A stretch of DNA of 64,000 nt from Dictyostelium discoideum (Eukaryota), in NCBI GenBank assembly GCA_000004695.1, contig CM000151.3, forward strand, positions 6,368,001 through 6,432,000, written 5' to 3'. Within the stretch, counting starts at the first letter, position 1. The number at the start of each line of letters is the position of its first letter. Below, piece after piece: positions 42,071 to 46,915 of the stretch. Both the position numbers and the translations under genes were made by a program. Below the pieces are notes generated by a model, which searched no databases, had not been told where the DNA came from, and saw only the letters and a list, made by a program, of their open reading frames with translations.

Positions 42071-45000
42071 TTAATTATTATTATTATTATTTAAATTAAG
42101 TTTTGATTTTGCAGAAGTAACATTTGTAAAAGATGGTTTATATCTTATAAAAGAATGTTTTGTTCCAGCATTAGATTCTAAATTTGATTTTAATTCTTTA
42201 TCCAATTTCTTTAATTGAAGAAAAGAACTTTGTGGAGTTGAAGGTGGTGAAAATTTGAATGGTAAATTACTATCATTATTTAATGTGTTAATTGATGCTC
42301 TACTTGAACCACCATCATAACTAAATCTTTTAGATTTATGTTTTGAATGAACTTCAAGTGAACTCTTTTTCGAATTGATATCACTTTTAAAGCCAATTTG
42401 ACTACCATTTGTATCACTACCATCGTTTGAATGTAAATCCAATTTTTGTAAATTTGAAATTAAATGATAATCTTTTGTAACTATAACTGGTGAATCAAAA
42501 CCACTATTTGTACCACTTGTACCACTATTTGTACCAGTACTACCAACACCTATATCACTACAAGTTTGAAGTACTGAAACACCACTATCATTATTAGCAC
42601 TATTTGTACCAAGATTTGGACTACTATTATTACAATTATTTAAATTACTATTACTATTATTATTATTATTATTATTATTGTTATTGTTATTGTTATTGCT
42701 ATTATTATTATTATTTTGAACTTGTAATAAATTTAAAGTACTATTTGATTGAGTACGACGTAAACCTTTGAAAGATGCTTTTGCTTTTTGTTCAGTGATA
42801 TCATTTGATTCAATCATTTTACTAATACTATGAATGATGGTATCGAAATAAGGTCTATTTTCAGGATCATCATCCCAACATTGTTCCATAAGATCAGTGT
42901 AGTTTTTATTACAATGCATTGGAATTGGTGGACGTAATCCTTTGAGTACTTGATCTTCAACTTCACAATTGAAAGCTATATGAGAGTAAGGTAGTTTTCT
43001 TGTTACCATTTCCCACATAATAATTGCAAATGAATAAACATCACATTTCTCTGAATACATAGCACCTCTAATTACTTCGGGTGCCATCCAAAGTGTTGTA
43101 CCTTTTTTTGAGTCTTTTTCAACTTTATTATTATCACCACTACCTGTATGTCTATTGAAAAAACCTGCAGTGATTCTACTCCTATTGATACATGTATTGA
43201 AATCTGCTACCTTTATATTAACCTTTGCACTTGTTGATAGGGATGATACCAATAGATTTGGTGATTTCATATCTAAATGTAGTATACCCAATGAGTGTAA
43301 ATAATGTAAACCCTTTGCAATATCCAATGCCATACGTAATACCAATTTATATGGTATAACCAATACAGGATTTGCCAAGACATCCATTAAATTACCACCT
43401 GGTACATATTCCATAACAATTGACCAATTTGCTATCTTTGTACAACCACCAACATATTTCACAACATTTGGATGATTAAACATACTCAATACTCTAACTT
43501 CATTATAGAAATCTTGAATCATCTCTGGTGATGGATCTGCCAATGGATGTAATTTCTTTACTGCTACAATAATTTGTGGTCCACTACCAATAATTGCATC
43601 CTTATTGATTATATCATTTGATGGATTTCTTGCTATTAACCAATTATGACCACTACCACTACCACTACTATTACTACCACTACTATCTTGATTACTAATA
43701 TGACGATTTAAATTATCTTGAGAAATTAAACCACGATAAATATCACCAGTTGCACCTGTACCTAATCGTTCATGTAAAACCACTTCTTTCTCTAAATCAA
43801 TCTCTTTATTACCTGGATGAATATTTTCACATTTCACAGTGATCAATATATGATGTACCTCTCTTTGATTAATAATTAATTGAATCATCTCTGATATTTC
43901 AGTTTCAACAAATACTGTCAATGTCGATTTAATATAAAACCATTCACCTTTTGATACTGTACCATTGGTTGGTACTAATGATAAACTAAATAAATCATTC
44001 TTTTTACCACGTGATGGAAAATGAAATTGAAAAGATGCATCTGCTGAACCCGAATTTGATATTAAGAATTTATCAGTTAATAATTGATAAATTTTCACAC
44101 TCTCAACATCACCAACTGAATTCTTTTTTTGATTACGTTGAAAATTTAATATATATTTACTTAGTTTTACTCTTGCTTGAGGTGTTGGTGTATTTTGATT
44201 TGAAATTGTAATTAATGGTGATGAAGATAATAATCCACTTCCATTATTATTATTATTATTATTATTATTATTATTATTATTATTATTATTATTATTATTA
44301 TTATTATTATTATTATTATTATTATTATTATTATTATTATTATTATTATTATTATTATTATTATTATTATTATTATTATTATTATTATTAATATTATTAT
44401 TTATAAGACCACCACCACCACTACCCCCTACTAAATTTAAACAACCTCCACTATTTCTCCTATTTGAATTTTCAATATTCCAACCATTACTTATATTTAC
44501 ATTACTATTATTATTGCTACCACTACCACCAATACTATTATTACTACCACCTCCTATATTATAACCACTACCACCACCACCATTATTATTATTATTATTT
44601 ATATTTATATTATTTGATAAATGAAGTGGTATTATATTTCTACCATCTAAAATTAATGTATGAGCTAATTCTTGAATTGATTTTACCATGGTTGGATTTT
44701 TTTTCATAAAACTTTCCATTTTCATTTGTTTCTCTAGTGGAAGTACACTACCGGCACAAGATTTTAAAAAGAGTGGAAGATAAGGATCAGTTTCAATCCT
44801 ACAAAATAATGTAAATTCCATACCACCAATAATATGTAATGTACTATAGATATCGGTCTCTATATGATTATATGCCATTAACTCTACTAAAACAGTTAAT
44901 GAATCACCTTTTTGAATGGTTCCACTTGATGGTATGAAATTTAATGTGAAATTTGGATCAAAAGGTGATAAAATCTCAAAATTGAATGAACACCCACCAA

Positions 45001-46915
45001 TATTTGAAATTTGAAATGAATCTCTAACCAAATGAAATACAACAATCTTTGGTTGATGTTTATGAATTATACCACTATTGGCAACTAATTGGTTATATGC
45101 CATTGATGGTGCTGATGTTGATAATAATGGATTTGTTCTCTTTAAAACTCCTCCACCACCACCACCACCATCTTTATTTTGAATTAATTGTAATTTATTT
45201 TGTTGTATTCCTGGTAATGGTTTAATATTTGTATTTGTATTTGTAGTTGTTGGTGCTGTTGTTGTAGTTGTCGTAGTTGTTGTAGTTGTAGTATTCATTG
45301 ATGTTATATTAACCATACCATTAGGACCAACCATACCAACACTTGTTGAAATTAATGGTAATCTTGTTATAGCAGAATTATAAAAAGGTGAATCAGTTCC
45401 ACTACCATTATCACTTGTACTAATATTTCTTGGTGGTGTTGGTAAAGGTTTCTTACTTAAAATAATTGGTGGTTTTGTTGGTGAACTTGATAAAGGAGAA
45501 ACTGATGGTGATACAGTAGTTGGAGAAACTGATGATGATGATGATTGTGAATTATTATCACCACCACCGCCTTTATTATTATTTTTATCTTCACCACTGC
45601 CAACACCATTAATTTTATCATTGTTTTTATTATTTATTTTATTAGCAGAATTTGCTATATTACTACCACTACCACCACCTCCAATATTATTTTGTTGTTG
45701 AATTTTCTTTAATTTTTTATTTAATTCTTCTTTTTGTTGTTGAAGTAAAATTAAATGTTGATGATGAATCTCTTGTAAATTAACGGGTGATTCAGAATCA
45801 ATGTATGATAATGCAGGTAATGTTAAATTATCATGATAAAAATAAAATCTTTTCTTTGATAGATGAACTTTAATTAAATCATTTAAAGACTCTGTTGCAA
45901 TGGTTCTATTTAATAATGATGGAAATGTTGGAATTGATCCTTTTCTATTACTAAATACTAAATCTTTAACTTTTTCCAATTGATGATTTGCTCTCTTTAA
46001 TTTACTATCTTGTGAATTATCACTACTAATTGCTAATTTTATCATTTCAATCCATTTTGATTTATCAAATACAGTTTGTGCTGATATTAAATAAATTCTA
46101 GTTGAATTTGGATATAATTTACTATTATTATTATTATTATTATTATTATTATTATTATTATTATTATTATTATTATTATTATTATTATTATTATTATTAT
46201 TATTATTATTATTATTATTATTATTATTATTATTATTATTATTATTATTATTATTATTATTATTATTATTATTAACTGAATCAGATGATGATCTTAATAT
46301 TGGTTGATTTTGTTGTTGTTGTATAATTGATTGATTCTCTGATATATAATTTGGATTAACTGCAAAACAATGTCTACGATTTCTATGATCAACTTCTTTT
46401 AATTCTGTTTTTTTAGTTAAATAAATTACACCTCTTGGCTTTGTATATTCCCAATTAATTGGTGATAAATAATATGATAATGTTCCTCTTTTTAAAACAA
46501 ACCACCTAATTTTCCCTATTAAATTTTTGAAAAAAAAAAAAAATAATAATAAAGAAATAAATAAAAAAAAAAATAAAAAATAAAAAAATAAAAAAAAAAA
46601 AAAAATTTTTTGTGTTAAAAAGTGTATCTATTTTTAGATAAAAAAAAAAAAAAAAAAAAAAAAAATTTTAAAAAATTAAAATAATATCTTACAATTTTGA
46701 ATTCTTCCACCTTGTTTGGTAAGATATCCAGTGTGCAATACTTGATCATCTATAAAACTATTATTATTACTATTATTTCCACTATTACTATTATTATTAT
46801 TATTATTATTATTATTATTATTATTATTATTATTATTATTATTTTTTATATTACCATCACTTCCACCACTATTGTTAGCAGGTTTAACAATAAGGGTAGT
46901 ACCAACACTTGTCAT
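42071..46915 (-). CDS. Protein of about 1556 aa: N-terminal PH domain, two beta-sandwich (MSP/ASH-like) repeats, C-terminal TKL-type kinase domain with HLD and DFN substitutions (putative pseudokinase); two exons
   Basis: Exon 1 46915..46693 (donor GTAAGA) and exon 2 46515..42071 (acceptor AATAG); intron 177 bp, phase 1. The PH domain spans the junction (GYLTKQGGRIQNW|KIRWFVLKRGTLSYY...HCFAVNPN...YLISAQTVFDKSKWIEMIKLAI). Kinase motifs: GTGATGDIYRG, VAVKKL, HLDMKSPNLL (HRD to HLD), VADFNTC (DFG to DFN), WMAPEV. Confidence 0.6.

Follow-up and report, generated by a model that had tools for sequence, protein, structure and literature searches.

On the minus strand of a 64,000-nucleotide stretch of Dictyostelium discoideum DNA (the window; assembly GCA_000004695.1, contig CM000151.3, positions 6,368,001 to 6,432,000), the gene at 46915..42071 encodes a large protein with a PH domain, two ASH domains and a TKL-type protein kinase domain, in which HLD and DFN stand in place of HRD and DFG. 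Judged from its sequence, the kinase is probably an active enzyme and not a dead scaffold. Its likely oddity is atypical regulation (it is non-RD and has lost the DFG glycine), not atypical chemistry. The reading favoured here is an active non-RD Ser/Thr kinase that would be recruited to 3-phosphoinositides by its PH domain and would use its ASH domains as docking modules, and we hold it to be reasonably likely.

By sequence identity, the locus is the D. discoideum gene DDB0229957, an orphan TKL-Unique protein kinase. The N-terminal sequence and the kinase alignment strings (IANWSIVMEYV, NPVLVIPYKLVLRMALDIAKGLH and VNIKVADFNTCINRSRITAGFF) are identical to DDB0229957, and the identity was established over the first ~400 amino acids plus these kinase-domain strings. 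The exact 1555-amino-acid sequence was absent from a large protein collection when looked up. In the supplements of the Dictyostelium kinome, DDB0229957 is assigned to group TKL, family TKL-Unique, is rated 'kd' (full kinase domain) with predicted activity 'a' (active), and has VAVK, HLDMKSPN and DFN in its motif columns (Goldberg et al. 2006, PMC1420674). The kinome criterion calls a domain inactive only if the equivalent of PKA K72, D166 or D184 is missing, and the main text does not discuss DDB0229957 (PMC1420674). DFN occurs once in the whole D. discoideum kinome table; the other glycine-less forms are DFS (6), DFD (3) and DFA (2). Literature searches, including by the identifier DDB0229957, found no functional study of the protein. 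Since existing catalogues already contain both the gene and its motif variants, their detection here is mostly a rediscovery of annotation. What is added is the assignment of the repeats to OCRL-like ASH domains and of the PH domain to the Grp1/DAPP1 3-phosphoinositide class, together with the conservation of the PH-ASH-ASH-kinase layout and of both substitutions across Dictyostelia.

The kinase domain and its unusual elements are located as follows.

42803..43786, minus strand: protein kinase domain of the TKL group, amino acids 985-1312, assigned from Pfam, solved relatives and kinome class.
43271..43279, minus strand: HLD, amino acids 1154-1156, at the HRD position; the catalytic Asp is kept and Arg is replaced by Leu1155 (non-RD), as in three orthologues.
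43196..43204, minus strand: DFN, amino acids 1179-1181, at the DFG position; the Mg-binding Asp and the Phe are kept and Gly is replaced by Asn1181, as in three orthologues.
43577..43732, minus strand: insertion between kinase strands beta2 and beta3, amino acids 1003-1054, directly after the G-loop, with low predicted local distance difference test (pLDDT) values in the structural model.

The Pfam profile PK_Tyr_Ser-Thr matched amino acids 1051-1301 with E=1.5e-51 (175.6 bits versus a cut-off of 23.1), and the closest solved kinases are MLK1, DLK, TAK1, Roco4, CTR1 and Raf (E about 1e-35 to 1e-37, 30-40% identity). HLD and DFN match HRD and DFG of EGFR, MLK1 and DLK column for column, with ilHLDmKSPNllv over iiHRDLKSsNiL and ikvaDFNtc over vKisDFGts in the alignments to solved kinases. 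The position of both motifs, as given in the first-pass annotation, was confirmed by these solved kinases. GxGxxG, VAVK and APE are retained, as it stated (GTGATG 993-998 with G993/G995/G998, VAVK 1058-1061 and APE 1219-1221). The same annotation described the Mg-binding DFG as changed to DFN; this is correct for the glycine, whereas the Mg-binding residue itself, Asp1179, is retained. Lys1061, the alphaC Glu1080, Asp1156, Lys1158, Asn1161, Phe1180, Asp1233 and Arg1295 are also present, and in an alignment of 45 sequences (44 homologues) the columns of K1061, E1080, D1156, K1158, N1161, D1179 and F1180 are invariant. The equivalents of Lys72, Asp166 and Asp184, at least one of which is missing from a pseudokinase by the kinome criterion, are all found (K1061, D1156 and D1179).

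Both the canonical HRD arginine and the canonical DFG glycine are absent (Leu1155 and Asn1181). The DFG glycine gives backbone flexibility to the motif, and the HRD arginine of RD kinases is the partner of a phosphate on the activation loop. Of the 120 nearest homologues, 113 have R in the HRD-arginine column and 6 have W; the one with L is the orthologue P0001 described below. From these alignments, Leu1155 makes the protein a non-RD kinase, not a non-kinase. Because its catalytic loop D-x-K-x-x-N and its P+1 loop GTxxWMAPE are of the Ser/Thr type, a Ser/Thr-type kinase is predicted. All orthologues conserve the two ends of the beta2-beta3 insertion (LISxxxLxxH... and W-x-x-R-x-P-S/T-D), and the D. 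discoideum protein carries an extra Ser/Gly-rich stretch in the middle.

Orthologues were collected by an exhaustive HMMER search, in which the first ASH domain (ASH1) with the helices that follow it (amino acids 555-705) was compared with 1.8 billion representatives. Only three strong matches were returned.

P0121: 1192 amino acids, from a third dictyostelid in EukProt.
P0122: Acytostelium subglobosum XP_012756746.1, named 'hypothetical protein'.
P0001: Synstelium polycarpum, a fragment.

No strong match to the ASH1 module was detected outside Dictyostelia in this search, and a word-indexed homologue search with the same ASH1-plus-helices region gave no match. The overall layout of the protein is PH domain, conserved block, ASH1 plus helices, ASH2, kinase and tail, and the full-length P0121 and P0122 have the same order. 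The G-loop, VAVK, H-L-D and A-D-F-N-T-C-I-N are kept in all three orthologues. APE is kept in both full-length ones; the stretch of the kinase domain that would contain it is missing from the P0001 fragment. Only D. discoideum has the poly-Asn tracts, and the orthologues have short or Ser/Thr/Pro-rich linkers instead.

The gene consists of two exons, with a single intron in the part that encodes the PH domain.

46693..46915, minus strand: coding exon 1, amino acids 1-74 plus 1 nt, with the Asn-rich N-terminus and PH strand beta1; ATG at 46915 and GT donor after 46693.
46516..46692, minus strand: intron of 177 bp (GTAAG...AATAG), GT..AG, very A/T-rich, interrupting the PH domain.
42071..46515, minus strand: coding exon 2, amino acids 75-1555 plus the stop codon, a continuous open reading frame (ORF).

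ORF and splice reconstruction gave a coding sequence of 4668 nt for a 1555-amino-acid protein without internal stop. Without splicing, the frame of exon 1 reaches a stop after 5 further codons. The spliced reading, LTKQGGRIQN joined to WKIRWFVLKRGTLSYY, is a typical PH beta1-beta2 segment that fits the PH profile, and the junction is identical in the curated DDB0229957 protein. The split of the PH domain by a 177-bp intron had been proposed before, and it holds: removal of the GT..AG intron 46692..46516 restores the PH core. The exon 2 product aligned end to end with P0121 and P0122. On the plus strand of 42071-46915, the only ORFs in the scan are short and of low complexity, mirroring the AAT repeats.

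The PH domain is interrupted twice.

45989..46744, minus strand: PH domain, amino acids 58-250, interrupted at the DNA level by the intron and at the protein level by a ~75-amino-acid low-complexity loop.
46119..46274, minus strand: pure (AAT)52 microsatellite found by Tandem Repeats Finder, encoding poly-Asn at amino acids ~166-205, in the PH loop before the last beta-strand.

The Pfam PH profile matched amino acids 60-133 with E=1.1e-12 (48.8 bits versus a cut-off of 25.1), which bears out the PH domain named in the first-pass annotation. In P0121 the profile is matched over its whole length (1-105), across the loop insert. The last PH strand and the C-terminal helix (RIYLISAQTVFDKSKWIEMIK) come after the ~75-amino-acid loop, which is variable and Ser/Thr/Pro-rich in the orthologues. 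With the loop removed, the best PH relative was Grp1/cytohesin-3 (E=1.7e-11), followed by ARNO, DAPP1 and TAPP1, and the best solved relatives are all 3-phosphoinositide binders. In the alignment to Grp1, the basic motif K-Xn-(K/R)-X-R and the beta3-beta4 arginine are present as K65, K74-I-R76 and R102. These residues align with ligand-contact positions of Grp1, and they are kept in the orthologues. The PH domain is therefore probably of the Grp1/DAPP1/TAPP1-like class, with predicted binding to 3-phosphoinositides.

Between the PH domain and the kinase lie the two related repeats.

44774..45052, minus strand: ASH domain 1 (ASH1), amino acids 563-655, related to ASH2; its distant matches are HYDIN/ASH-type Ig repeats.
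44624..44773, minus strand: helical segment after ASH1, amino acids 656-705, conserved in the dictyostelid orthologues, with three predicted helices (pLDDT 61-84).
44243..44401, minus strand: (AAT)53 microsatellite found by Tandem Repeats Finder, encoding the poly-Asn stretch that links the ASH1 module to ASH2; the orthologues lack it.
43814..44173, minus strand: ASH domain 2 (ASH2), amino acids 856-975, abutting the kinase through a conserved 14-amino-acid linker (CENIHxGNKEID).

ASH1 and ASH2, taken as amino acids 563-655 and 856-971, are 31% identical over 77 amino acids (pairwise E=1e-9). ASH2 matched the Pfam profile OCRL-like_ASH at amino acids 876-963 (E=4e-5 to 1.3e-4, 22.5-24.1 bits versus a cut-off of 27) and HYDIN_VesB_CFA65-like_Ig with E=4e-4, just under the gathering score. 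ASH1 of D. discoideum gave only faint Pfam matches, and ASH1 of Acytostelium passed the gathering scores of HYDIN_VesB_CFA65-like_Ig (31.6 bits) and OCRL-like_ASH (28.6 bits). A search of the PDB sequences with ASH2 as a single sequence returned chance-level matches only. A profile of seven dictyostelid repeats found the OCRL1 ASH domain best (3qbt, 2qv2 and 3qis; E=2e-4), then FAP47, FAP74, CFAP221 and HYDIN. The weak matches of the exhaustive HMMER search were bacterial multi-repeat proteins rich in HYDIN/ASH/BACON-type Ig domains.

Structural prediction gave a similar ranking. In an AlphaFold2 (AF2) run on amino acids 555-1320 the kinase core was confident, and both ASH domains were unusable with pLDDT <50. 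A second AF2 run was made for ASH2, with an alignment in which 26 HYDIN-like Ig segments, picked by similarity, were added to the dictyostelid repeats; it gave an all-beta model with pLDDT 84.3. The predicted ASH2 model has the seven-to-nine-stranded beta-sandwich of the PapD-like fold. When it was compared with the PDB by Foldseek, the OCRL1 ASH domain ranked first (E=1.6e-8, template modelling (TM) score 0.66, 21-23% identity); the central-pair ASH proteins, the PapD-like domains of HYDIN and the CEP192 ASH domain came next, and VAP/Scs2 MSP domains followed. From the profile comparisons and the predicted fold of ASH2, we assign both repeats to the OCRL-like type of ASH (PapD-like) domain, not to the VAP-type MSP. 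The two MSP/ASH-type beta-sandwich repeats noticed at first reading are thereby specified more precisely. MSP domains in the strict sense (VAP-type, FFAT-binding) were rejected, because the Pfam scans of the protein gave no Motile_Sperm match and VAP/Scs2 rank below ASH. The long poly-Asn linkers that had been placed between the domains are real for (AAT)53, which separates the ASH1 module from ASH2; (AAT)52 lies inside the PH domain. The near-invariant 14-amino-acid linker suggests a fixed arrangement of ASH2 relative to the kinase N-lobe.

Several observations weigh against the favoured reading of an active, lipid-recruited kinase with ASH docking modules. Of 119 homologues aligned at the DFG glycine, 118 have G and one, the orthologue P0001, has N; loss of this near-invariant glycine could impair catalysis. 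The 52-amino-acid beta2-beta3 insert and the long activation-loop insert are both unusual. Other DFx variants in the Dictyostelium kinome include predicted-inactive as well as predicted-active domains, and the literature searches gave no activity, lipid-binding, localisation or mutant data for DDB0229957. The D. discoideum copies of both repeats score below the Pfam ASH gathering threshold, and the ASH2 model leans toward the HYDIN-like Ig fold through its alignment choice; the sequence evidence for ASH is independent of that model. In the PH domain, Arg70 is Lys or Thr in the orthologues, and the ~75-amino-acid low-complexity loop occupies the place of the Grp1 beta6-beta7 specificity hairpin. 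The kinase points bear on the pseudokinase scaffold that the first-pass annotation had suggested, in which the fold would be kept for ATP or partner binding, phosphotransfer would be lost, and the protein would act as a PIP3-recruited adaptor. Consistent with such a scaffold, replacement of the DFG glycine is confined, within the 120 nearest homologues, to the DDB0229957 orthologue group; the kinase has large inserts between beta2 and beta3 and in the activation loop, and the protein has several docking-type domains. Non-RD kinases, however, are commonly active, and the K72, D166 and D184 equivalents are all present in a domain that the curated kinome calls active. The G-loop, the alphaC Glu, the catalytic-loop Lys and Asn, APE and the subdomain IX and XI residues (Asp1233 and Arg1295) are intact across Dictyostelia, which is unlike the usual decay pattern of pseudokinases. 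Since the catalytic core and both substitutions are conserved together, a working active site under constraint is indicated, not decay. DFN is compatible with activity in Leishmania MPK10, a natural DFN kinase which is reported to be active and to have its R and C spines aligned without phosphorylation (PMC4169501). A pseudokinase scaffold is accordingly not supported, and we regard it as unlikely. The atypical catalytic mechanism that had been offered beside it survives in a weaker form, as atypical regulation without atypical chemistry.

The PH points bear on another explanation, in which the kinase would be active but the PH domain would not sense 3-phosphoinositides, binding lipids weakly or unspecifically or binding a protein instead, and targeting would depend mainly on the ASH domains and linear motifs. 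In its favour, lipid binding is weak or absent in most PH domains, and the beta6-beta7 region is a variable low-complexity loop. Arg70, too, is not conserved, which makes the lipid specificity uncertain. Against it, all of the nearest solved PH domains are 3-phosphoinositide-specific, and the basic set K65, K74-x-R76 and R102 is kept in all orthologues, so that we consider a non-sensing PH domain distinctly improbable. It was also considered that HLD and DFN, or the joining of a PH exon to a kinase ORF, could come from mis-assembly or from a decaying pseudogene. The many microsatellites in the ORF are the sole support for such an artefact. The reading frame of 4668 nt is unbroken, the canonical intron has the same splice as the curated protein, and the architecture and motifs are common to three orthologues. 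The variant codons, TTA (Leu of HLD) and AAT (Asn of DFN), are each at least 2 nt away from Arg and Gly codons, respectively, so they are not single-base errors; this codon distance and the orthologue conservation rule out sequencing error as their origin. On this evidence an artefact is effectively refuted, with only a minute chance left to it. The favoured reading of an active, PH-recruited non-RD kinase is followed in the mechanism proposed below.

Outside the named domains, two further segments of the protein are conserved.

45791..45931, minus strand: conserved block, amino acids 270-316, between PH and ASH1, with the pattern PSLLNRxxxxxSxNxxIxVxLSK[KR][RK]FYFYHDxLTxPxLxxIxS, kept in three orthologues.
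42074..42802, minus strand: C-terminal tail, amino acids 1313-1555 (243 amino acids), with three conserved motifs.

The block at amino acids 270-316 has no Pfam match. FYFYHD within it (amino acids 298-303) was considered as an FFAT-like motif and dropped, its context being basic, not acidic, and the repeats being ASH-type, not VAP-type. A small conserved motif, SPFYxSxxTxL, lies at amino acids 451-460. The first tail motif, DIxEQKxKASF[KR]GLRRxxS (42746..42802, minus strand), resembles a phosphorylation site of basophilic kinases (L-x-R-x-x-S), and the second and third, LPFKFSPPSTPQSSF and FIRYKPSF, are near the C-terminus (42128..42265, minus strand). A KSKRFS site at amino acids 1468-1473 is partly conserved. 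The kinase domain, described earlier as C-terminal, is of the TKL type as a kinase, but it is followed by this 243-amino-acid tail.

The window has a GC content of 15-32% and abundant (AAT)n tracts. A 118-amino-acid Asn-rich ORF without Pfam match (41147-41503, minus strand) lies directly downstream of the kinase gene. Neighbouring ORFs at 47536-48474 (plus strand), 50862-53294 (plus strand), 54563-56587 (plus strand), 5737-8313 (minus strand) and 8612-9892 (minus strand) encode an acid-lipase-like alpha/beta hydrolase, an EMC1-like protein, a class II aminoacyl-tRNA synthetase, a Sec1-family protein and a spore-coat-like protein (Dicty_spore_N), and are probably exon fragments of spliced genes. 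The acid-lipase-like ORF is divergent from the kinase gene across a ~620-bp A/T-rich spacer. Two overlapping large ORFs at 12617-17522 (minus strand), one with a reverse-transcriptase domain (RVT_1, E=5e-37), are flanked by tRNA-Ser(AGA) and tRNA-Arg(ACG) genes at 11305-11386 (plus strand) and 18977-19050 (plus strand), and this arrangement looks like a tRNA-gene-associated Dictyostelium retrotransposon.

In the proposed mechanism, DDB0229957 would be a catalytically competent Ser/Thr-type kinase. As a non-RD kinase it would offer no arginine for an activation-loop phosphate to neutralise, and the Asn that replaces the DFG glycine may promote a permanently assembled 'DFG-in' site, as in Leishmania MPK10. 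Location and partners, not activation-loop phosphorylation, would then control activity. The PH domain would probably recruit the kinase to membranes rich in PI(3,4,5)P3 or PI(3,4)P2, such as leading edges and the cups of macropinocytosis and phagocytosis. The two OCRL-like ASH domains may serve as protein-docking modules, with ASH2 held near the kinase N-lobe by its short conserved linker. In a more specific version, HLD and DFN would mark a dictyostelid-specific TKL kinase that is locked DFG-in without need of activation-loop phosphorylation, is turned on purely by PI3K-dependent recruitment to membranes through its Grp1-like PH domain, and has ASH domains that read Rab GTPases, making it a direct PIP3-Rab coincidence kinase for macropinosome or phagosome maturation; we regard this version as doubtful. 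If the protein is an active, PIP3-recruited non-RD/DFN kinase, it would be a second natural example, after Leishmania MPK10, of an active kinase without the DFG glycine, and D. discoideum, in which chemotaxis and macropinocytosis are studied as models, would gain a new PI3K effector.

The catalytic domain can be compared with two sets of known kinases. Its nearest catalytic domains, those of MLK, DLK, TAK1, Raf, CTR1 and Roco4, share the HxDxKSxN loop and WMAPE. In contrast to DDB0229957, all of them have HRD and DFG, and their accessory domains are SH3/LZ, RBD/C1, EDR1 or ROC-COR. Leishmania MPK10 is alike in having Asn at the DFG glycine with Asp and Phe kept, a comparison that covers DFN only. 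It differs in belonging to the CMGC/MAPK group and not to TKL, in being regulated by a C-terminal auto-inhibitory tail, and in having no PH or ASH domain.

The accessory domains have their own counterparts. The predicted PH domain shares GGR-x-x-x-WK-x-RWF and PRG-I/V-I with that of Grp1/cytohesin-3, whereas Grp1 has a beta6-beta7 specificity hairpin where DDB0229957 has a poly-Asn/low-complexity loop. Akt/PKB, PDK1 and Btk/Tec work in the way proposed here for DDB0229957, in that a 3-phosphoinositide-class PH domain is joined to a kinase and PI3K determines where it acts; this is an analogy and not a membership. Those kinases belong to the AGC or TK groups and DDB0229957 to TKL, and Akt and Btk, unlike the non-RD DDB0229957, are of the RD type and depend on phosphorylation of the activation loop. 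The ASH repeats share the F-x-I-x-N-x-G and P-x-x-G-x-l-x-x-G signature with the ASH domains of OCRL1 and INPP5B. OCRL has a single ASH domain between its 5-phosphatase and RhoGAP-like domains, which binds Rab GTPases together with an N-terminal helix. In contrast, DDB0229957 has two ASH copies beside a kinase, and a possible link to Rab is suggested by similarity of fold and sequence to 3qbt alone.

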